Positions 5,616 through 63,093 of a stretch of 64,000 bases of DNA are shown one piece after another. The stretch's first letter is position 1; every line of letters begins with the position of its first letter. The position numbers and the translations under genes are program-made. The notes under the pieces are model-generated. The model saw nothing but the letters and a program-made list of their open reading frames with translations, was not told the origin of the DNA and did not search any database. The DNA comes from Candidatus Uhrbacteria bacterium (GTDB lineage Bacteria > Patescibacteriota > Patescibacteriia > UBA9934 > UBA10169). The stretch is taken from positions 121,349 to 185,348 of the forward strand of contig JACPJO010000004.1 of assembly GCA_016187485.1 (NCBI GenBank). The letters run 5' to 3'.

Positions 5616-5630
5616 TTTTGTTACATGTCT

Positions 5631-5741
5631 CTTAGTGATCACTTAGAGAGAAAGATCAGGCGAGAGGACTTTTTGTTCTTACTTTAGAGATATTTTCAGT
5701 CAACCCCACTTATCCTCACTTAGTGATCACTTAGAGAGAAA
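5631..5741. repeat. Two direct copies of a 24-bp element, CTTAGTGATCACTTAGAGAGAAAG (5631-5654 and 5718-5741), each containing the perfect 10-bp palindrome AGTGATCACT
   Basis: Read directly. The copies are identical, lie about 63 bp apart in the intergenic region upstream of the 5862 ORF, and a further CTTAGAGAG follows at about 5755. Confidence 0.65.
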
Positions 5742-5861
5742 GCGGGCATGATGACTTAGAGAGCAAATGAGAGGCTTCGTCGCTTGCAAAAATCAAAATT
5801 TCCTGCTAGGTTCCCCTTATTCCAAGCCGGTGCTTGGATGGAGGACCTTGCCATGTCTGTG

Positions 5862-6332
5862 CGACCCGACCCCAACCTCTCCACCGAGGCCAACCGGATC
5901 GGAATCACCCGTCTCGAATCGGAGGCTGCCTGGCACGACTTCCGGCGCCTGTCCCAACTGCTCACCACGCATCTCGTGACCTTCCTGCGCGGGATCCACA
6001 ACCAAGACCCCCGCAACATGGGGCTCGCAGTGTCGCGCCTCTCCGCCAACGCGATCACCCTCTACATCACCCGCAACTGCAACGTACGAGAGGTGGCCGC
6101 GGGTCTGGAGATGCTCGATATCTCCTCTCGGGAGGAACGGCGCGTCAGCTTCTCCATCGTCGTCCGCGACGGCGCGCTCTGGGTCATGGACACCGATGGG
6201 GTCCGCAGTGGGAGCTCCTTCGACGAGATCCACGATGCGCTCCTCGCGCAGATCTGCGACTGGCTCCGCTTCCCCGTCCCCCCGCACCTCCTGCGCAACC
6301 GGCTCCGCGTCGAGCAGGGTCCGACCCCCTAG
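5862..6332 (+). CDS. Hypothetical protein (about 156 aa)
   Basis: ATG at 5862 preceded by GGAGGA. The ORF-track start at 5784 is an upstream extension without an RBS. GC about 64%. No recognisable domain. Confidence 0.4.
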   Translation, partial: RPDPNLSTEANRIGITRLESEAAWHDFRRLSQLLTTHLVTFLRGIHNQDPRNMGLAVSRLSANAITLYITRNCNVREVAAGLEMLDISSREERRVSFSIVVRDGALWVMDTDGVRSGSSFDEIHDALLAQICDWLRFPVPPHLLRNRLRVEQGPTP

Positions 6333-8987: not shown

Positions 8988-11021
8988 TTATCGAGAAGCA
9001 AATCCGGGGATTTCCAGTTTGCGACCCTGATACTCTTCTTCGTAAAACTCTACACGGTCACCGGGTTCCGCTTTTACCTTTCCTTTATAGGAAATACCGA
9101 ACTCCTCGCCCGGTTGAACGGACTTCACAACTCTGGCCCCCGTCTTCATTTCAAGCACACTACCTTCTCCGATAATTTCCGTGCCGCGGAACATGCGCAT
9201 CTTGGCTCCGGGTTTCGCCGTCCCGTTTTTGAGACGCCCGCCCACAATCCATCCGTGTTCGATTTTACGAAACGCCGCGAGAACCTCCATATCGCCAAGC
9301 TCGCGGATGACATAGGCGTCCGGAAGCATCTCCTGCAAACGGCGGAGCACATCCTCGACAATTTTATAGATGATTTTCTCTACAAACAGTTCTACTTTTT
9401 TGTCCCGGGCAAATGCTTCCGCCCCCGGCGTAGGCGCGACACCAAACGCATAGACAATCGCATGGGATGCTTCGGCGTTTTGCACATCCGATTCCGTCAC
9501 ATTGCCCAGTCCACGCGACACCACCGTCACCCCCACATCGGGGTGCTCAATACGGTCGAAGAGTCCAAGCAGGGCCTCGAGCGATCCAAGAACATCCGCT
9601 TTCACCAGCACGGGAAGCAGCTTCTTCTCTCCTTGTTCCGTCGTACCGGAGATCTTGGAAGCCGTCATCTCCACAAGCTGGCCGGACCCTGCAGAGTGCT
9701 CAAACTTCTCGCGGCGCAGGATTTTTTCATTCTCCGCCACCTCCATAATATCCCCCACCGACGGCGTCGTCTTCCAACCAAGCACTTTCACAGGTGTTGA
9801 TGGGGGGGCTTCCTTCACCTCAACCATGCGCCAATTTTTCATAGCGCGGACTTTGCCATAGTGGACACCACGGATTCCAAGCACGTCGCCCACGCGAAGC
9901 GTCCCCGACTGCACAAGCACCGTTGCCACCGGCCCCTGCCCCTTATCAATATGCGAGTCAATGATCGTTCCCACAGCCGACGTAGCGGGATTCGCGCTAA
10001 TGGTTTCTTTTTCCATTTCGGCCACAAGCAAAACCATGTCGAGAAGTTTATCGATGTTTGTTCCCTGCTTGGCGGAGAGAGGCACGGTAATCACTTTGCC
10101 GCCCCACTCATCGGGCAAAAGATTACGCTCCGACAATTGCGTAAGCACCCGCTGTACGTCGGCACCCGGCACGTCAATTTTGTTGATCGCGACCACAAAC
10201 GGCATCTTGGCCGCCAGAATGATGTCGAGCGCCTCGATAGTCTGCGGGCGAATGCCATCGTCCGCCGCGATCACCAGAATGGCGATGTCTGCCACCTTGG
10301 CGCCACGCGAGCGCATCACGGTAAACGCTTCGTGGCCCGGGGTATCAATAAACGTGAGGGGAGACTTTCCCCCTTCTTTGCTCTGATACTCCACTTGGTA
10401 AGCGCCGATGTGCTGGGTAATACCGCCAGCTTCGGTCGCTACCACGTCGGTTTTGCGAATCGCGTCCAATAGTTTCGTCTTTCCGTGGTCGACGTGTCCC
10501 ATCACCACGACAACTGGCGAGCGTGCGCTCCCTGCCGCGCGGCTTTCCCGAAGCACTTCTTCCAGATGTTGATGTTCCACCTCTTCGGCCTTCGATGTTT
10601 CGGATGTCGTCGCCTCGCGCGTCGCCTCATAACCAAGATCGCCCGCAAGAATAGCCGCCGTATCAAAGTCAATGTTCTCATTAAGCGAAGCCAAGATGCC
10701 CGCGCGCATAAGTTCTTGCATGACGCGCGCAATGGGAAGTTGCAGACGTTCCGCAAACTCCCGTACCGTAAGCACCGGAGGAAGCGTTACGTTTTTGTCC
10801 TTCACCACTTCTTTGCGTTCCTGCGTTGCTTTTTGCGCCTCCATGCGTTCCTTAAGTCGCTCGCGACGGCGCATCTCGCTCCACGCGTTTTGAATCTGGC
10901 TCGCGATGCGATTGTCCACCTTAATCGCACGGCGTCCAATGCTAAACCCGAGCTCGGGCAGACGGCGGTAGAGCTCTTCGGGCGTAGCATTCAGACGGCG
11001 AGCGAGTTCCGTAATATTCAT
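8988..11021 (-). CDS. infB: Translation initiation factor IF-2
   Basis: 677 aa with G1-G4 GTPase motifs (GHVDHGKTKLLD, DTPGH, NKID), an N-terminal IF2_N region and C-terminal beta-barrel domains. Confidence 0.95.
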   Translation of the reverse strand: MNITELARRLNATPEELYRRLPELGFSIGRRAIKVDNRIASQIQNAWSEMRRRERLKERMEAQKATQERKEVVKDKNVTLPPVLTVREFAERLQLPIARVMQELMRAGILASLNENIDFDTAAILAGDLGYEATREATTSETSKAEEVEHQHLEEVLRESRAAGSARSPVVVVMGHVDHGKTKLLDAIRKTDVVATEAGGITQHIGAYQVEYQSKEGGKSPLTFIDTPGHEAFTVMRSRGAKVADIAILVIAADDGIRPQTIEALDIILAAKMPFVVAINKIDVPGADVQRVLTQLSERNLLPDEWGGKVITVPLSAKQGTNIDKLLDMVLLVAEMEKETISANPATSAVGTIIDSHIDKGQGPVATVLVQSGTLRVGDVLGIRGVHYGKVRAMKNWRMVEVKEAPPSTPVKVLGWKTTPSVGDIMEVAENEKILRREKFEHSAGSGQLVEMTASKISGTTEQGEKKLLPVLVKADVLGSLEALLGLFDRIEHPDVGVTVVSRGLGNVTESDVQNAEASHAIVYAFGVAPTPGAEAFARDKKVELFVEKIIYKIVEDVLRRLQEMLPDAYVIRELGDMEVLAAFRKIEHGWIVGGRLKNGTAKPGAKMRMFRGTEIIGEGSVLEMKTGARVVKSVQPGEEFGISYKGKVKAEPGDRVEFYEEEYQGRKLEIPGFASR

Positions 11022-17492: not shown

Positions 17493-18098
17493 TCAGAAGG
17501 TGAAGAACTGCGGAACGCTGTGCCAGGCCGTCTGGCGCTTTGGAGAAAGTTGGCTTTGCGCAAAGAGCATCATCGTCTCGATGGACCTGACCCGCATGGC
17601 CACACCGAAGCCTTCAAGCACCTTGAGACCCGCTCCCGTGAGTGCCAGGCTCTTTGTCTCTGGATCGCTTTCCCAGATCTCAGGATTCGTGTAGTCCCAG
17701 CGCTCCCCGTCGAAGAGGGCGTCACACTCCCCGGCCGCATCTTCGACGGCGACAACCCCCGGCGCGAGTTCCGCCATGCGGGTGGGAGCGTACTGCGGAA
17801 GCTGACGAGCAACTTTCCGGTAGTACTGGATGGCCTTCTGCCGCATCGTATCCATTGCTCCGTCTCCCTTCTTGGTGGAAAAAACGTATCCAAAACCCCC
17901 TGGCTCTGGACGTTCGCTACAGTAGCGTGCCGGTAGATAAAAATCAAAGGCGACTTCTTTTGACACAAAAGAAAGGCGGCACACTCCATTTTCTGAAGTT
18001 GTGCCGTCGACGCCTACTGGCTGATGAGATGAAGGAACGTGTCCGGCCTCCGAAATAGTGATGTCTGGTGCAGTATTCTTGAATTGGTCCGAACGCAT
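17493..18098 (-). CDS. Hypothetical protein (about 201 aa), directly upstream of proS on the same strand
   Basis: The ORF-track ORF (to 18290) overlaps the terminator of the preceding gene, so the start is placed at the internal ATG at 18098 (MRSDQF...). The C-terminal two thirds have ordinary globular composition. The opposite-strand ORFs are junk-like. Confidence 0.4.
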   Translation of the reverse strand: MRSDQFKNTAPDITISEAGHVPSSHQPVGVDGTTSENGVCRLSFVSKEVAFDFYLPARYCSERPEPGGFGYVFSTKKGDGAMDTMRQKAIQYYRKVARQLPQYAPTRMAELAPGVVAVEDAAGECDALFDGERWDYTNPEIWESDPETKSLALTGAGLKVLEGFGVAMRVRSIETMMLFAQSQLSPKRQTAWHSVPQFFTF

Positions 18099-18144
18099 TT
18101 CGCCGTCTGCGACGTTTCGCAAACCTGACCGCTCGGGTGCTGCC

Positions 18145-18170
18145 GAGAAAGAAAAGTCCCGCCTGGGACT
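18145..18170 (-). terminator. Rho-independent terminator after the zinc-ribbon repeat gene
   Basis: AGTCCCgcctGGGACT hairpin followed, on the minus strand, by TTTTCTTTCT, 14 nt downstream of the stop. Confidence 0.45.
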
Positions 18171-18183
18171 GAAGAAAAAATCC

Positions 18184-19074
18184 CTAGACGGGGCGAGCGG
18201 CCATATTGGCGTGCCGTTGACGTTGGTAGCAACTGGAGCAGATGGCCTTGCCGGTCTCGTTGCGAACCTGCACCGGTTTGACCTCACCACACGTGAAACA
18301 CTTCTCGTGCGTGGAGGGGTCTCGATAACGAGCTTTGTGATAGCAGTTCAGACAGATGGCTTCGCCGGTCTCGTTGCGAACCTCCACTCGTTTGACCTCG
18401 CCACACATGAAACACTTCTCGTGCCTGGAGGGGTCTTTGCGATAGCAGCTCGGACAGACGGCCCTGCCGATCTCGTTGCGAACCTCCACTCGTTTGACCT
18501 CGCCACACGCGAAACACTTCTCGTGCCTGGAAGGGTCTTTGCGATAGCAGTTCGGACAGATGGCTTCGCCGGTCTCGTTGCGAACCTGCACTCGTTTGAC
18601 CTCGTCACACACGAAACACTTCTCGTGCGTGGAGGGGTCTCGATAACGAGCCGTCTGATTGCAGTTCGGACAGATGGCTCCGCCGGTCTCGTTGCGCGCA
18701 GCCACCGGTTTGACCTCTCCACATTCCGAGCACTTCTCGTGAGTAGAAGGGTCGTGGTAGCGAGCCCTCTGATAGCAGTTCAGACAGATGGCCTCGCCGG
18801 TCTCGTTGTGCATTGTCAGCGGTTTGACCTCGCCACACGTGAAACACTCCCCGCACCTGGAAGGGTCTTTGCGATAGCAGTTCGAACAGGTGGCTTTGCC
18901 GGTCTCGTTGCGCGCAGCTATCGGTTTGACCTCGCCACACATGAAACACTTCTCGTGAGTAGAAGGATCGTGGTAGCGAGCCCACTGATAGCAGTTCAGA
19001 CAGATGGCTTTGCCGATCTTACGGTTTTTACGGACAGTCCTGTGCCGTCCGCAGGTATCACAAACACCTTTCAC
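18184..19074 (-). CDS. Tandem zinc-ribbon repeat protein: eight consecutive C-x2-C-x16-C-x2-C modules (296 aa)
   Basis: GTG start with a strong AAGGAGG RBS 7 nt upstream. Repeat unit HEKCFxCGEVKxVxxRNETGxAICxNCY(QxARYxDPST/RKDPSR) x8. The opposite-strand ORF 18058..19134 is its shadow. Confidence 0.75.
   Translation of the reverse strand: MKGVCDTCGRHRTVRKNRKIGKAICLNCYQWARYHDPSTHEKCFMCGEVKPIAARNETGKATCSNCYRKDPSRCGECFTCGEVKPLTMHNETGEAICLNCYQRARYHDPSTHEKCSECGEVKPVAARNETGGAICPNCNQTARYRDPSTHEKCFVCDEVKRVQVRNETGEAICPNCYRKDPSRHEKCFACGEVKRVEVRNEIGRAVCPSCYRKDPSRHEKCFMCGEVKRVEVRNETGEAICLNCYHKARYRDPSTHEKCFTCGEVKPVQVRNETGKAICSSCYQRQRHANMAARPV
18200..19060. repeat. Coding tandem DNA repeat, unit about 99-114 bp x8
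   Basis: Recurring ...CGTTTGACCTCGCCACACATGAAACACTTCTCGTG... blocks at about 18393, 18492, 18591 and onward. Confidence 0.7.
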
Positions 19075-19174
19075 GGCTGCACCTCCTTTCGGTTTGGATC
19101 CTGGAAAAGAGCAGACTCAGATCACTTGATCTGACACCGCACCGTACGTTATTACTTGCTCCACGTCAAGGCTA

Positions 19175-19225: not shown

Positions 19226-20209
19226 TTAACAGCTAAATTCTTCGACCGACTTCGGAATCTTAAATTTATCACAAAATTTTACAAACAATGGCAACAAATC
19301 ACTTTTTACTAATTCCAGTTCACGATATATCCCCATTGCGACGGCGAGTCCGTGTGGAATTTCAAAATGGGTGTCTTCTTCAATTCGGTCAGAAAGTTCA
19401 TGCCCACCTCTCAAAATTTTCCGCGAGCCGTTTGCGTTTTCTTCCACATCGATTTTTAGACACACTGCTTTCAAAGTCGCGGTCCACAAAATTACTTTCA
19501 GTAAAGATTTTTTATTTGTGTACGGGTCGAAGTCTTGTGAAAGTAAAAAATCAAGAAGTGTCTGTGACTGATAAATTGCATGTTTTATCACTTCGCCAAG
19601 CCCAGTCGAAATTTGTCTTTCTGAAAGTGTTTCTAAAAATCGTGGGTCGAGAAGTATTTGGTTTGGCTCGTAAAAACTTTTGTAATAGTGCTTAAAAAAT
19701 CTTCCTTTATCAATCATGTTTACCCTAACCTTTCCACCGCTTCCATCTGCCATACCGATTACGGTTGTTGGAATTTGCACAAGCGGAACACCCAACAGCT
19801 CGGCAACATACGCGGCGACGTTAAGTGTCAATCCACCACCAATTCCAACAACCTCTTTCGCTCCGCTTTCTTTGATACGATTTTGTTCAATAAAGTTTTT
19901 GAGCCAACCCCATTCTTTAAAGGTTTCTTCTCTCGCTTCTTCAAAAAATACATTTTCTTTCGGGAGAAAATCTTTGAGAAAAGTATTTGATAAACCCTTG
20001 TCGCAAAAAATCAATTGTGAATTATTAAATGTATTTTTTGAAAGAGAAGAAACAGAGAGAGAATATGATTTTATCTCGTCACTTCGTGGGTGGAACGAAG
20101 GAACATCGAAAAACAATTCGAACGAAGAAAGTTTGTCGTCCGAGATATTTTTAAACTTTTCGTCAGTAGTGAGCGATTCATTAAGAATTTTTGAATAAAG
20201 ACCGTGCAT
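19226..20209 (-). CDS. 3-dehydroquinate synthase-like (sugar-phosphate cyclase / Fe-ADH superfamily) protein
   Basis: VVGIGGGLTLNVAAYVAELLGVPLVQIPTTVIGMADGSGGKVRVN (DHQS-like GGG...PTT...D..GGK nucleotide/metal block) and HGLAVAMG. The gene is markedly AT-rich (about 37% GC) compared with its neighbours. Confidence 0.65.
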   Translation of the reverse strand: MHGLYSKILNESLTTDEKFKNISDDKLSSFELFFDVPSFHPRSDEIKSYSLSVSSLSKNTFNNSQLIFCDKGLSNTFLKDFLPKENVFFEEAREETFKEWGWLKNFIEQNRIKESGAKEVVGIGGGLTLNVAAYVAELLGVPLVQIPTTVIGMADGSGGKVRVNMIDKGRFFKHYYKSFYEPNQILLDPRFLETLSERQISTGLGEVIKHAIYQSQTLLDFLLSQDFDPYTNKKSLLKVILWTATLKAVCLKIDVEENANGSRKILRGGHELSDRIEEDTHFEIPHGLAVAMGIYRELELVKSDLLPLFVKFCDKFKIPKSVEEFSC

Positions 20210-20294: not shown

Positions 20295-20371
20295 TGGTGC
20301 GGCCGGAAGGAGTCGAACCCTCGACCTCGTGGTCCGAAGCCACGCGCTCTATCCAGCTGAGCTACGGCCGC
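20295..20371 (-). tRNA. tRNA-Arg (anticodon TCG)
   Basis: GCGGCCGTAGCTCAGCTGGATAGAGCGCGTGGCTTCGGACCACGAGGTCGAGGGTTCGACTCCTTCCGGCCGCACCA folds as a cloverleaf with anticodon loop CTTCGGA. Confidence 0.85.
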
Positions 20372-20446: not shown

Positions 20447-20522
20447 GGGCGCATAGCTCAGTTGGTAGAGCAGTTGGCTCTTAACCAAACGGTCGGAGGT
20501 TCGAATCCTCCTGCGCCCACCA
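20447..20522 (+). tRNA. tRNA-Lys (anticodon CTT)
   Basis: GGGCGCATAGCTCAGTTGGTAGAGCAGTTGGCTCTTAACCAAACGGTCGGAGGTTCGAATCCTCCTGCGCCCACCA with anticodon loop CTCTTAA. A GC hairpin (AAGCCCCGCcatgaGCGGGGCTT) follows at about 20563-20587. Confidence 0.85.
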
Positions 20523-32842: not shown

Positions 32843-33202
32843 CTAGGCCACGGCGGCAGGCTTACCCGTGCTGAAGGCGGTAGCCGGAAGCGGAATGAGA
32901 GCGACGAGCGGCCGCTCGCGATCCTTCAGCTCCTCGACCGGCAACACCGTGTTCGCCAGGCACTCCGTGAGCGCCATGTGCACGCGGGTGTGCAAGTCGT
33001 TGCAGACGTCGGGCGTACGCGTCCCCTTCTCCTTGTAGACGATCTCGACGTAGATCGAACGACCTTCGGTCACGATCGGGATGGGACGGATGTTGTCCGC
33101 GTGCGCGCCAAAGTCGGGCGTGCCGATCATGGCCTTCACGATGGCCTCCATGAGCAGGCCGGGGGTGTAGAACAGCGGGCAGTAGAGCTTGACAGCGGGC
33201 AT
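32843..33202 (-). CDS. T-fold protein, possibly QueF-like (7-cyano-7-deazaguanine reductase family)
   Basis: Start placed at MPAVKLYCP.... LYCP..GTPDFGAH resembles QueF SLCPKTGQPDFA, and PDVCNDLHTRVHMAL resembles HEDCMNIIMNDL. Weak similarity judged by eye only. Confidence 0.35.
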   Translation of the reverse strand: MPAVKLYCPLFYTPGLLMEAIVKAMIGTPDFGAHADNIRPIPIVTEGRSIYVEIVYKEKGTRTPDVCNDLHTRVHMALTECLANTVLPVEELKDRERPLVALIPLPATAFSTGKPAAVA

Positions 33203-33261
33203 GGAGCCTCCAGGGTTGCGTTGGCAATGTAGCAGGATACCAAGAAAAATCAAGGTGGATT

Positions 33262-33291
33262 CTCTCTTAGTGATCTCTAAGAGAGAATCTT
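33262..33291. promoter_or_regulatory. Perfect 12-bp inverted repeat ATTCTCTCTTAG-tgatct-CTAAGAGAGAAT in the divergent intergenic region between the T-fold gene and rpsA
   Basis: Read directly. It contains the TTAGTGATC core seen at 5631/5718, 48552 and 49118. Confidence 0.45.
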
Positions 33292-33413
33292 TGCTATGCG
33301 CCTATCCGCTCCTTGACACTCGGCCTGGCATCGCCTACACTCCCCCCATTCTTTATTCATAGCCCCGTCCGTCCCCGACTACCTAAAAGTCAGGCTACGG
33401 CCGGAAATATCGT

Positions 33414-34544
33414 ATGACCGATCAAATCCCTCTCTCCCCTTTTGGCGCTCTTCTCGCCGAGAACGAGGCCTATTTGCTTTTCCCAAAGCTGGGTGACATC
33501 GTGAAAGGTAAGGTCGTCTCTGCCAACCGCCGCGAGGTGCGCCTCGACTTGAGTGGTGTCGCCGTGGGTGTCGTACGCGGCCGCGAACTTTTTGCCGAAT
33601 CCGAAGAATACGCGTCGCTTGAGCCAGGCAACGAAATCGAAGCAACGGTAATTGGTCTTGAAAACGAAAACGGCGAGATCGAACTCTCCTTCCGATTCAC
33701 GGGTGCCCAAAAGGCATGGGAAGGACTGCGTGATGGCCAGACCAAGAGCGAGATTGTGAAAGCGAAGATCCTCGACGCCAACAAAGGCGGCCTTATTGTG
33801 CAGGTGGGCCATGTCACAGGCTTCCTTCCCGTCTCGCAACTCTCCCCCGACCACTACCCACGCGTATCGGGCGGCGACAAGCAGAAAATCTTGGAGAAGT
33901 TGAAAACATACGTCGGGGAATCTTTCGACGTGCGCCTTCTGGATGTGAATGAACAAGATGAAAAACTCATCGTCTCGGAAAAGGCTGTGTGGGAAGAGAA
34001 GCGTAAAAGCGAAATCTCTCAGTATAAAGTTGGCAATACCGTGGACGGAGACGTTACCGCGCTTGCGGACTTCGGCGCGTTTGTAAAATTCGACGCGCTG
34101 GAAGGATTGGTGCACATCAGTGAAATCGCCTGGCAGCGCATTGACCACCCCAAAGATGTCCTCAAGGTCGGCGACCATGTACGCGCCGAGATCATCGGTA
34201 TAGAGGGATCAAAGATCTTCCTCTCCATGAAGAAACTTATGGAAGATCCGTGGCGTAATGTGGAGAAGAGGTACAAAGTGGGCGACGTGGTAAAGGGCAA
34301 AGTGTTAAAAGTAAATCCCTTCGGCTTCTTTGTAGAACTGGACCAAGACATCCACGGCTTGGCGCACGTAAGTGAGCTTTCGGAAAAGCCCGTGGAAGAT
34401 CTTCACACCATTGCCAATGAGGGCGACACGATTGATTTCAAAGTGGTGTCCATTGAACCAAAAGAGCACCGCCTGGGCTTGAGCCTCAAGGCAATGAAGG
34501 AACCCACGGCTCCTGTCAAAGAAGATGTGCCGCAAGCGGCATAA
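33414..34544 (+). CDS. rpsA: 30S ribosomal protein S1 (four S1 domains)
   Basis: Repeated S1 motifs (GDIVKGKVV..., GQTKSEIVKAKI..., GNTVDGDVTALADFGAFV..., GDVVKGKVLKVNPFGFFV...). Confidence 0.9.
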   Translation: MTDQIPLSPFGALLAENEAYLLFPKLGDIVKGKVVSANRREVRLDLSGVAVGVVRGRELFAESEEYASLEPGNEIEATVIGLENENGEIELSFRFTGAQKAWEGLRDGQTKSEIVKAKILDANKGGLIVQVGHVTGFLPVSQLSPDHYPRVSGGDKQKILEKLKTYVGESFDVRLLDVNEQDEKLIVSEKAVWEEKRKSEISQYKVGNTVDGDVTALADFGAFVKFDALEGLVHISEIAWQRIDHPKDVLKVGDHVRAEIIGIEGSKIFLSMKKLMEDPWRNVEKRYKVGDVVKGKVLKVNPFGFFVELDQDIHGLAHVSELSEKPVEDLHTIANEGDTIDFKVVSIEPKEHRLGLSLKAMKEPTAPVKEDVPQAA

Positions 34545-44391: not shown

Positions 44392-45159
44392 ATGGACGCT
44401 ATGAAGAAGCCTCTTTACTCGCCGGAACTGTTGGAGACTCTGGGTATCGGCACAAAAGAGATGGATATTTACATGGCGCTCCTGCGGCTTGGCACAGCTC
44501 CTCTCCGCCTTGTGGCGGAAGAAGCCCATGTCAACCGCGGTCTGTGTTACGACGCTCTCAAGCGACTGGTCTCGCGAGGACTCGCGGGATACGTAGACGC
44601 CAAGCGTCATAGATATTTCCGTGCCGAGGACCCCGGGAGATTGCGCGCGCTTGCCACCAAAAAAGAAGTGGCGATCGAGGAAGCGCGCGAAGAGCTCGGT
44701 CGTCTCATCCCCCTCTTACAAGCCACCACGGGCGTGAGTGAATACCGCCCGGCAGTGCGCTATCTGGAAGGGACTGCAGGAGTGCATGATCTTTTAGAAG
44801 ATGTCTTGCGTGTAAGCGAGGAGACGCGAGACAGACTGTATCGCGTGTATTCCTCCGCGGGATTGCGCGACCTCATCTCTGCCGCATGGCCGAGATTCAA
44901 GGAGGAACGCGTCCGTCGAGGTGTGCGTGTACGCGCTATCTCGATCGGTGAAGGAGGGACGACGGTTGGCCTTGATGAGCGGCGATGGCTTTCCAAAAGT
45001 GCTGAAGCGCCATCTTACATCTTCATATACGCGGGCAAGACCGCCTGCGTAGCCCAAGACCGTCACCGCCAGCTATTTGGGGTGATTACCGAAGACGCTG
45101 CCATCGCCAAGACCCAGCAACTCATTTTTGATGCCCTATGGAAGCAACTGCCCTCGTAA
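44392..45159 (+). CDS. TrmB-like HTH transcriptional regulator
   Basis: N-terminal wHTH (..LLETLGIGTKEMDIYMALLRLGTAPLRLVAEEAHVNRGLCYDALKRLVSRGLAGYV..) and a C-terminal TrmB-type domain. Confidence 0.6.
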   Translation: MDAMKKPLYSPELLETLGIGTKEMDIYMALLRLGTAPLRLVAEEAHVNRGLCYDALKRLVSRGLAGYVDAKRHRYFRAEDPGRLRALATKKEVAIEEAREELGRLIPLLQATTGVSEYRPAVRYLEGTAGVHDLLEDVLRVSEETRDRLYRVYSSAGLRDLISAAWPRFKEERVRRGVRVRAISIGEGGTTVGLDERRWLSKSAEAPSYIFIYAGKTACVAQDRHRQLFGVITEDAAIAKTQQLIFDALWKQLPS

Positions 45160-48285: not shown

Positions 48286-48551
48286 GCTTCCTCCTCGCGG
48301 TTTTACCGCTGTGTGAGTTTCTCGCCGAAGTGGCGAGAAGTACTCCTAAAATAACAAAAAGTGAGCATTTTGTCAATGCTTCGCGTGCTTTTGTGGGCAT
48401 TTCAACTAACGAGAACTCATATCAAAAACACTCTTTGGTCGTTTCGGATCAAACGACATCTGAAACGCCTTCAAAGCTATTTTTGATATGAGCTCTAACT
48501 AGCTCTTGCGTCTACGCTCAATTGCTTCCCTGCTCCGAAATCCGTTCATGA

Positions 48552-48584
48552 CCCGACTAGTGATCCGGCCGGATCACTAGTCGG
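48552..48584. promoter_or_regulatory. Perfect 32-bp palindrome CCGACTAGTGATCCGG|CCGGATCACTAGTCGG at the 3' end of the wHTH-Cas2-like gene
   Basis: Read directly. It overlaps the gene's stop codon. Confidence 0.6.
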
Positions 48585-49107
48585 ATTGCTTAGCAATGTA
48601 AACCCGGATCCAATCTCCCGCTCCTGCCATCTTAATGAGCTGTGAAAGTGGTTTGGCAATATCAAAATTCGACGCCCAAACACTCTGTTGTATAGGAATA
48701 AAACCTATGGAGGACAAAAATCTTCGCCATTGAAGTCGCAAAGGCCGTAAACTTTCTGGAATATCAAACACGACGAGGCAATCGGTATCCTCGGGTAAAG
48801 TGGCTGCGAAATGCAGCTGGAGGCGGACGTACTCAAAAAGGCCTTTCTGTGTCAGTGCTGCCTCAAAAATTCCAGCTTTTTCTCGCAGCTTCAAAAGCTT
48901 TTGCTTTTTCAGTTGGTGCAACGCGTTGATTTTTTGTCTTTTTGCCAGATCGAGACGCATTCTCTCAAGATCAAACTGATAATACCAAAGAGCTTTTCTC
49001 CCTCGATACGTCTGTATATGCTCAAGTGTCATATACAAATTTCCAAACGCTTCAAGAAGTTTTGAAACGCTTGAATTTTGACGGAGAGGTCTTTCAAAAC
49101 TTTTCAT
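48577..49107 (-). CDS. wHTH + Cas2/VapD-like domain fusion protein (176 aa)
   Basis: N-terminal helix-rich wHTH-like region (..SKLLEAFGNLYMTLEHIQTYRGRKALWYYQFDL..). The C-terminal LVVFDIPESLRPLRLQWRRFLSSIGFIPIQQSVWAS...DWIRVYIA follows the Cas2 beta1-alpha1-beta2...beta4 pattern (VVYDI..R+..L...G.RVQ.SVF...DSVRIY). The architecture is like PaaX-type regulators. Inference from motif inspection only. Confidence 0.55.
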   Translation of the reverse strand: MKSFERPLRQNSSVSKLLEAFGNLYMTLEHIQTYRGRKALWYYQFDLERMRLDLAKRQKINALHQLKKQKLLKLREKAGIFEAALTQKGLFEYVRLQLHFAATLPEDTDCLVVFDIPESLRPLRLQWRRFLSSIGFIPIQQSVWASNFDIAKPLSQLIKMAGAGDWIRVYIAKQSD

Positions 49108-49117
49108 AGCGGTTTGA

Positions 49118-49143
49118 TTAGTGATCCGGCTGGATCACTAGAG
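49118..49143. promoter_or_regulatory. Near-perfect palindrome TAGTGATCCggctGGATCACTA 11 nt upstream of the wHTH-Cas2-like start
   Basis: Read directly. The 9-bp arms are identical to those of the palindrome at 48552. Confidence 0.6.
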
Positions 49144-62909: not shown

Positions 62910-63093
62910 ACGCCCGCTACGTAAGAACTTTCACAATTTATAGCATTACGAAACCAATTAGATTTTGTGTGATCATAACGTCCTCGCGTGGCCTTCGGGC
63001 CGCCCGAGATTATCACCAAGATAATAATTCCTTTATAGAGTATAGAGCGAAAGCTCAAACAGCAGATCCCTCGCAAGAGGGGTATATCTGAGA

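Follow-up and report, generated by a model that had tools for sequence, protein, structure and literature searches.

Five short palindromic sites sharing a GATC-containing core lie in a 64,000-nt stretch of DNA from a Candidatus Uhrbacteria bacterium (contig JACPJO010000004.1, positions 121,349 to 185,348 of the forward strand; hereafter the window). Two of them bracket a gene, here called X1, for a 176-aa winged-helix and Cas2-like protein, and such bracketing, by lineage-specific palindromes centered on CGATCG, CGGTCG, or CGGCCG, is a rule throughout the family of its homologues (collectively, X). The five sites are best read, with a probability of roughly 0.55, as double-stranded DNA operators of two related kinds (classes A and B), class B being cognate to the X1 protein whose gene it brackets. 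A PaaX-type winged-helix repressor with its operators is a known kind of system; what appears to be new is the bracket by CGATCG-centered palindromes. No description of truncated PaaX/Cas2-like genes bracketed by their own palindromes of this type was found in the literature searched.

Bacteria of the Candidate Phyla Radiation (CPR) have very few recognizable regulators, and their cis-regulatory code is almost unexplored. The X family (about 800 clusters at 50% identity, usually annotated just as PaaX-like or Cas2-like) links a widespread small protein to a precise and easily recognized DNA signature, so that recognition between a protein and its DNA becomes testable in organisms not yet cultured, and more targets can be sought by the same rule.

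The original prediction was of one core recurring at five sites, and all five are present in the window. Their motifs are more frequent than base composition predicts: TTAGTGATC occurs 4 times against 0.16 expected (equaled in 0 of 100 shuffles) and TAGTGATC 7 times against 0.8 (a count that no shuffle equaled), these counts not being independent, as the sites amount to three or four independent elements in two classes. Every copy of either motif falls within one of the five sites. Class A comprises the sites at 5.6 and 33.3 kb, whose dyads are centered on GA|TC; class B comprises those at 48.55 and 49.13 kb, of the form TAGTGATC-CGGCYG-GATCACTA, with CGGCCG at the center. A 20-mer, CTTAGTGATCNCTNAGAGAG, matches three class A sites (expectation 0.00). 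The GATC core is the dyad center in class A only; in class B, GATC is found in the arms. A scan of 185,579 species genomes with TAGTGATCNCTNAGAGA returned 109 single, chance-like matches in unrelated taxa, none of them homologous to the window. Logan contigs from the SRR121133xx-34xx samples are all 99.98-100% identical to it (one population).

It is very improbable that the sites serve mainly as Dam-type methylation or restriction-modification targets, as had also been suggested. GATC is indeed present in all of them, and the family-wide center CGATCG contains it. In the window as a whole, however, it is neither depleted nor enriched (303 observed against 331 expected under a Markov model, a ratio of 0.92), and the five sites do not stand out as carriers of it; the class B center is CGGCCG rather than GATC, and the proteins scanned, which did not exhaust the genes present, included no DNA methyltransferase. 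The methyltransferase encoded at 41602-43050 matches S-adenosylmethionine (SAM)-dependent families (Methyltrans_SAM / Cons_hypoth95), and is presumably an RNA methyltransferase.

X genes and their bracketing palindromes

X1 is encoded on the minus strand (48577-49107). Its downstream palindrome, B1 (48553-48584; CCGACTAGTGATCCGG|CCGGATCACTAGTCGG), is perfect over 32 nt; the dyad is 8 nt beyond the X1 stop codon, and that codon (48577-48579) lies inside one arm. All five sites had been described as intergenic, which holds apart from this overlap. The upstream copy, B2 (49117-49142; ATTAGTGATCCGGCTGGATCACTAGA), is less perfect: it includes a 22-nt palindrome with one mismatch at 49119-49140 (TAGTGATCCGGCTGGATCACTA), and its dyad precedes the ATG of X1 by 22 nt.

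The first hint of a more general arrangement was locus L116, where an X1 homologue (39% identity; the sole distant homologue from a word search) has on both flanks a repeat of different sequence (ACTCGTACCTTTGACGATCGACTGAG...). Among 1.84 billion representatives, 795 homologues reached E ≤ 1e-3, nearly all of them 150-200 aa long. For a survey of their flanks, 80 metagenome loci with X homologues were fetched, of which 64 had enough flanking DNA. An exact segment of 14-40 nt is common to the 5′ and 3′ flanks of 34 of these 64 X genes, versus 1 of 288 control genes from the same loci; as many as 40 nt can be identical between the upstream and the downstream copy. This segment forms a zero-loop palindrome, with arms that differ from lineage to lineage. 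Its central hexamer, in about 110 symmetric sites, is CGATCG in 74, CGGTCG in 8, CGGCCG in 6, and CGACCG in 3. In 29 loci (347 kb), 29 palindromes with arms of 10 nt or more stand beside X and 17 elsewhere, and most of the 17 are unrelated.

Positions are also regular: one copy is located 10-30 nt ahead of the ATG, and a longer one directly follows the stop codon. The upstream dyad is quantized, at -11 from the ATG (10 cases) or at -19 to -24 (about 20 cases), while the downstream dyad is mostly at +4 to +30 past the stop codon; the median arm is 18 nt downstream versus 8 nt upstream. B2 (-22) and B1 (+8, CGGCCG, TGATCCGGCCGGATCA; compare TGATCCGATCGGATCA in L154 and L168) fit these modes. Arm positions +9 to +14 are weakly conserved over 60 distinct palindromes, roughly as T-A-T-n-T-G. 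A closer X1 homologue from the same samples, X2 (P0004; 59% identity), is bracketed by CTAAGTGTCCGATCGGACACTTAG and ATGTGTCCGATCGGACACAT; the tetranucleotide composition of its contig correlates with that of the window at r = 0.93, which places it in the same genome or a very close relative. The observation that palindromes flank the winged-helix/Cas2-like gene is confirmed and extended: throughout the protein family the bracket is found again, its sequence co-varying.

The palindromes also leave a mark on assemblies. Independent Logan assemblies all stop exactly at B1 (48555; ends of L001-L006 and L117) and at the X2 upstream palindrome (position 1 of L208-L210), and a de Bruijn graph would be expected to break at a perfect palindrome longer than k. 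X genes tend toward contig ends, and short-read assemblies under-sample their flanks.

The X1 protein resembles PaaX without its C-terminal ligand domain. It matches the Pfam family PaaX_M (PF20803) over residues 110-173 (E = 7.5e-12; 45.6 bits versus a cutoff of 24), with no match to PaaX_C; the protein stops at residue 176, straight after the Cas2-like domain. An AlphaFold model made from 40 homologues (mean predicted local distance difference test score, pLDDT, 88.6) has an N-terminal winged helix (helix 56-68, strands 72-77 and 80-85, helix 87-99). Among solved structures, Foldseek ranks E. coli PaaX (8a39) first, with Cas2 and small winged-helix proteins next; SSV1 F-93 and MarR-type proteins are among the matches, and the Foldseek probability for Cas2 structures 5zyf, 5xvn, and 8q2n is 0.97-1.0. 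In a profile search of PDB sequences, residues 112-147 match Cas2 only; weak ArsR/eS10 profile matches were also obtained for X1. PADLOC Cas2 models match X1 and two homologues (E = 4e-7 to 2.5e-5). In a 40-sequence alignment D115, R124, and S142 are invariant; the motif is C[ML]VVFDIPE...R..LR...GF..IQ.SVW, which resembles the Cas2 β1 Asp motif.

The neighbors of X1 in the window encode a GDSL lipase, NUDIX, HSP20, and ClpP proteins, and include no paa genes. No X1 paralogue and no CRISPR array was found within the window, and no Cas1 among the called neighbors (the 80 metagenome loci were not scanned for cas1). Within the first 65 nt of the X1 coding region is a hairpin with a 14-bp stem (49042-49075, minus strand), past which some gene callers start the gene (P0001, 151 aa). 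The gene-poor stretch immediately downstream of B1 has a long-range inverted repeat (GAGAACTCATATCAAAAA ... TTTTTGATATGAGCTCT, 48411-48496) with a second hairpin (GTCGTTTCGGATCAAACGAC, 48439-48458) inside it, perhaps a structured RNA or terminator, with no Rfam match above noise.

At other loci X stands among DNA-repair genes. The order uvrB-uvrA-X-uvrC is found in L130, L142, L150, L152, and L153, and recG-X-radA in L127, L131, and L134; L213 (1243-3529) has genes for uracil-DNA glycosylase (UDG), a PD-(D/E)XK nuclease, and X; in L116, RNase H follows X. Synteny is kept in lineages with diverged palindromes, which argues for vertical inheritance. In L150 the full order is uvrB-palindrome-uvrA-palindrome-X-palindrome-uvrC, with a third full copy upstream of uvrA and the downstream copy 27 nt before uvrC; judged by placement, this is the behavior of a putative operator. 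These neighborhoods suggest a role for X in the control of DNA repair in CPR bacteria, lineages in which the SOS system is poorly defined. L130 has further palindromes: one at 47, with different arms, upstream of uvrB, and two CGATCG-centered ones with related arms at 9298 and 9427, 129 nt apart with no gene between them. This pair is intergenic, after rsmH and ftsL-like genes, and resembles the A1/A2 arrangement described below.

Class A units and their relation to class B

The class A unit, TCWCTWAGWGA, is an 11-bp palindrome of 5-1-5 form, with 13 copies in the window versus 1.8 expected (one mismatch allowed). Two adjoining units form a 22-bp site that is also palindromic about GA|TC. A1 (5628-5654) consists of units TCTCTTAGTGA|TCACTTAGAGA, with its dyad at 5638|5639; A2 (5716-5742) consists of units TCACTTAGTGA|TCACTTAGAGA, with its dyad at 5726|5727, 88 bp from that of A1. 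The two contain identical 24-mers (5631-5654 and 5719-5742), and the repeat widens to the whole 27 nt of each site at 96% identity. A degenerate third half copy (5749-5766) includes a third, single unit (TGACTTAGAGA, 5752-5762), which adjoins A2 directly in the copies in L205 and L208. Together these form a module of about 125 nt: two units (A1, the left end), spacer, two units, third unit. Within the spacer (5655-5715), the blocks ACTTTTT, CTTACTTTAGAG, and GTCAAnCCCACTTATCC are conserved in paralogous and orthologous copies. A1 and A2 are located past the terminators of a 63-aa open reading frame (ORF) and upstream of a 159-aa orphan gene (5853-6332, plus strand). The latter has no Pfam match and only its self-match among 5.8 billion proteins, so there are no orthologous promoters to compare at this locus.

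A3 (33258-33289) is a 13-nt perfect inverted repeat (33258-33270 and 33277-33289) with TGATCT between the arms; read across its center it is a 32-nt palindrome with one mismatch, and its units are at 33263-33284. It lies between a 119-aa orphan gene (32843-33202, minus strand, ATG at 33202) and the divergent rpsA gene for an S1-domain ribosomal protein (33414-34544, plus strand), 24 nt upstream of the -35 box of the promoter-like site of rpsA (TTGACA-17-TACACT, 33313-33341, plus strand). The encoded S1 protein is identical to one at NCBI from Candidatus Uhrbacteria bacterium. A3 is a solo copy of the A1-like end of the module, identical at 28/28 positions to L208 9918-9945. In the closest relative available, a sister species (L205; S1 92% identical), CCTCACTAAGTCGTCTCTTAGTGATCACTAAGTGAGG and TTCTCTCTAAGAGATGACTAAGAGAGA are found upstream of rpsA, the latter 15 nt before the -35 box; more distant relatives (S1 74-77% identity) have just CGTCGAGAGA, adjoining the -35 box. 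At the rpsA locus, L205 carries the full module and the window only a solo end; the more distant L206 and L207 carry none.

Two other features of the rpsA region can be mentioned here. The leader TCATAGCSCCGTYYGCC, between the rpsA promoter and start codon, is conserved in four Uhrbacteria-like genomes (window 33357-33376; L205 ~1247-1266; L206 ~763-780; L207 ~5933-5950), and is a candidate S1 autoregulatory element. The slot between a conserved 223/250-aa gene and rpsA is occupied by the 119-aa gene in the window and by a 274-aa ORF in L205 (65-889), and is empty in L207 (5101-5853); with a different orphan ORF in each close relative, the class A elements appear to stand beside a hypervariable gene slot.

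The module is duplicated as a whole. Three full copies, with palindromic 22-mers at both ends, and one solo end are distributed over the window, L208, and L205. Window 5628-5737 is 74% identical to L205 1071-1180 and 76% identical to L208 9827-9942, spacer included, and dyad spacings in the three full copies are 88, 88, and 97 bp. The L208 copy sits between truD and a divergent gene. Of the 8 flanks of the four elements, 7 are gene 5′ ends, belonging to rpsA (twice), truD, the 159-aa orphan, a 398-aa gene, and two different orphan ORFs. The original prediction had proposed as checks the position relative to start codons and a comparison of orthologous regions; the class A sites behave like operators in both, favoring gene 5′ ends in these four elements and being kept upstream of rpsA in the sister species. 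No target-site duplication was found in the flanks of the three aligned module copies, nor any further class A copy in the 9 kb left of the window. The earlier alternative of a repeat like repetitive extragenic palindromic (REP) sequences or miniature inverted-repeat transposable elements (MITEs) thus survives in part: duplication of the module at unrelated loci, together with the solo end, fits a MITE-like history, while the target-site duplications are missing. We read class A as an array of predicted operators on a regulatory module, itself duplicated among promoter regions.

There are precedents for parts of this arrangement. Paired dyad sites in promoter regions are also known from the lac O1-O3, gal OE-OI, and nag loops, and palindromic units one helical turn apart, as in class A, are typical of Arc/MetJ-type repressors. 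Unlike these operators, the class A module is duplicated with its spacer between unrelated promoters, like “mobile promoter” or MITE-type elements.

Three other readings of the first class A locus were rejected. A CRISPR mini-array is contradicted by the presence of two repeats only and by the homology of the “spacer” between loci. A DnaA-box-like sequence (TTATCCTCA, 5707-5717; 8/9 match to TTATCCACA) is conserved right beside the A2-like end of each of the three module copies; a replication origin was nonetheless rejected, there being no GC-skew switch and the element being multi-copy. A sigma-54/enhancer reading of 5770-5790 has a GG-to-GC spacing one base too long.

Whether one protein reads both classes is a separate question. 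Classes A and B share TAGTGATC, and A and B2 share TTAGTGATC; the common motif CACT(T)AG / TGATC is lineage-specific. The arms of B1 (CGACT-AGTGATC) and B2 (TCTCT-AGTGATC) are equivalent to the class A unit minus its central base, and an X2 arm has the unit core CACTTAG at +6 to +12 from the dyad, in a zone weakly conserved family-wide. Since the unit core of class A is also the motif found in the arms at X1 and X2, the class A binder would most likely belong to the X family, and the chance that one such protein (X1, X2, or an unseen paralogue) binds both A and B may be put at roughly one in three. Nearly as likely a binder of class A is the 255-aa TrmB-family winged-helix regulator encoded at 44392-45159, the only other recognizable transcription factor among the proteins scanned. 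The proposal of one regulon under one helix-turn-helix protein must accordingly be divided: B1 and B2 are very probably cognate sites of the protein that they flank, but a single regulator for A and B together is only partly supported.

It is possible, although not our preference, that A and B are altogether unrelated, their common TAGTGATC being a coincidence, with B as the operator pair of X1 and A bound by the TrmB-family protein or by a small repressor of ribbon-helix-helix type that binds the 11-bp units in tandem. Dyad centers and half-site geometry do differ between the classes, a second winged-helix regulator is encoded in the window, and the tandem units a helical turn apart are Arc/MetJ-like. 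The longest words shared with the class A set are 8 nt for B1, 9 for B2, and 8 for the X2 upstream palindrome, and as a control, 5 of 84 palindromes from unrelated X lineages also share a word of at least 8 nt with it. On the other hand, the X1 and X2 palindromes both carry the unit core in the same arm zone, +6 to +12, for which the joint chance is roughly 0.002 if X1 and X2 are treated as independent. The sharing of the heptamer/octamer CACT(T)AG / TAGTGATC is unusual, but not decisive.

Proposed operator function and its alternatives

B1 and B2 are most likely the X1 protein's own operators. X1 would be a dimeric repressor-type protein, with a winged helix and a Cas2-like dimerization domain; the Cas2-like dimer core could read the conserved center, while the arms would be read by the variable winged helices about one helical turn out, some 9-14 bp from the dyad. 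Autorepression, as for PaaX at its own promoter, would come from the upstream copy (dyad at -22 from the ATG), and the downstream copy would be a second high-affinity site, acting through a loop of about 560 bp or as a read-through block. Class A units, one helical turn apart, would have been copied within the ~125-nt module to several promoter regions, including that of rpsA, in a genus-level lineage.

PaaX is the nearest known system. In E. coli, PaaX recognizes TGATTC-N27-GAATCA and acts as a repressor at its own promoter (PMC9493321). Like X1, the phenylacetyl-CoA-responsive PaaX of E. coli and Pseudomonas has a winged helix followed by a Cas2-like middle domain (PF20803), and its sites, like those of class B (TGATCC-N4-GGATCA), are inverted hexamers, although with a gap of 27 rather than 4 nt. 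PaaX is also longer (~305 versus 176 aa), through a C-terminal ligand-binding domain that X1 lacks; X1 has no paa genes nearby, its homologues at other loci adjoining uvrABC, recG/radA, or UDG genes instead; and class B sites flank the gene at either end. In sequence, X1's middle domain is nearer to true Cas2 (YDI-like motif VVFDIPE). It shares with Cas2 a ferredoxin-like fold, an invariant β1 Asp, and an SVW/SVF-like motif, and Cas2 is likewise associated with palindromic repeats of about 30-40 nt. Unlike Cas2, X1 is fused to a winged helix, has neither cas1 among its called neighbors nor a CRISPR array in the window, and has only two repeats, which flank its own gene. The presence of Cas2 hallmark residues beside palindromic repeats bears on how Cas2 and repeat recognition evolved.

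Several observations weigh against the operator reading. No sigma-70-like promoter was found for X1. Extra copies beyond the bracket number only about 3 in 325 kb of X flanks; most loci have none but the pair beside X, so that X, as a regulator, would mostly regulate itself. In about 21 of 53 loci the downstream gene is convergent and the downstream palindrome is still kept, which means that this copy is not simply the operator of the next gene. Downstream palindromes of 36-56 nt exceed the usual footprint of a dimer. Differences between upstream and downstream copies include 24 compensated versus 23 uncompensated double differences, a modest excess; in L142, for example, the two copies differ yet each remains palindromic, which hints at selection or mutational bias for palindromy as such. 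The dyad centers of the two classes are not the same (TGATCA/TGATCT in A, CGGCCG in B), and half-sites are 10 bp closer in A than in B, so one rigid dimer cannot bind both alike. Finally, homology of the class A spacer between unrelated loci suggests that the whole element was duplicated, rather than sites being gained independently.

An action at the RNA level is improbable: the palindromes would then be terminators, mRNA stabilizers, or occluders of the X start codon, or class A a small RNA. A3, B1, and B2 do fold far better than shuffled sequences (z = -4.2 to -6.8), the upstream arm in the family often contains the ATG (dyad at -11), and downstream copies lie directly past the stop codon. 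A1 and A2, however, fold no better than shuffles (z about 0). Arm mismatches are G:T in 71 cases and A:C in 70, with no sense-strand bias toward G:U; the conserved center, a 6-bp palindrome in its own right, has a symmetry that no hairpin loop requires; a T-rich tail follows just 8 of 50 downstream copies, and B1 has no T run on the coding strand. A terminator scan found no intrinsic terminator at the sites, and no Rfam family matches any of them. The lack of G:U bias, the scarcity of T-rich tails, the palindromic center, and the absence of Rfam matches favor a symmetric site in duplex DNA.

A further possibility, unlikely in our view, is that palindrome, gene, and palindrome form a selfish or domesticated cassette like those of the REP-associated tyrosine transposases (RAYTs) and REPINs, with the palindromes and the gene-less class A modules as its non-autonomous, MITE-like derivatives, spread or maintained by the protein; the Cas2-like domain, with its β1 Asp, would nick or process the CGATCG center. 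The likeness is considerable. RAYT genes, too, are single-copy and vertically inherited, with a palindromic repeat of their own on either side; protein and repeat co-vary between lineages, and the variable palindromes contain a short invariant motif. X genes are tightly bracketed by palindromes that co-vary with the protein; REPs carry a conserved tetranucleotide, and the X palindromes a short conserved center between variable arms. Copies identical over as much as 40 nt suggest gene conversion or recent duplication. The invariant D115, R124, and S142 and the matches of Cas2 models to X1 are also what a cassette would predict, as are pairs without a gene (L130 9298/9427, and the class A modules with 88-97 bp between dyads), whole-module homology at unrelated loci with a solo end at rpsA in the window, and neighboring orphan genes that differ between sister species.

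The differences are nevertheless substantial. X has a fold unrelated to that of RAYTs, with no HUH-Y1 (IS200/IS605-like) transposase and indeed no transposase or recombinase fold at all. Its palindromes are zero-loop perfect and of a double-stranded type, and in the DNA covered they appear far fewer than REPs, of which a genome has tens to hundreds: to the low number given above for the X flanks can be added that ~84 kb of the Uhrbacteria genome contain no extra class B copy. X remains in conserved synteny (uvrBA-X-uvrC) across lineages with diverged palindromes, and module ends lack target-site duplications. REPs favor gene 3′ ends; class A favors 5′ ends (7/8 flanks). A stricter version, in which the X proteins are more than repressors, namely sequence-directed, catalytically competent Cas2 relatives acting on the CGATCG center, with the cassette domesticated and class A derived from it, seems distinctly unlikely. 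If true, it would make X a free-living pairing of Cas2 with a palindromic repeat outside CRISPR, in a radiation largely without CRISPR-Cas, and one recruited into DNA-repair clusters (uvrBA-X-uvrC, recG-X-radA, UDG/PD-(D/E)XK-X) in several CPR lineages.

Other features of the window

The window has a G+C content of about 55%, and a bacterial 16S rRNA gene begins at 63084. Between 20700 and 27000 the G+C is raised (0.60-0.66), and several ORFs of 288-567 aa there have no Pfam match. Inside the ORF at 18058-19134, a unit of 102-114 nt is repeated in tandem about six times (18333-19019; 68-76% matches), which indicates a repetitive protein. A 3-dehydroquinate-synthase-like gene (19226-20209) has a G+C of 41% (0.34 at third positions), versus ~55% for the genome, and adjoins genes for tRNA-Arg (20295-20371) and tRNA-Lys (20447-20522); by its composition, it was probably acquired horizontally.

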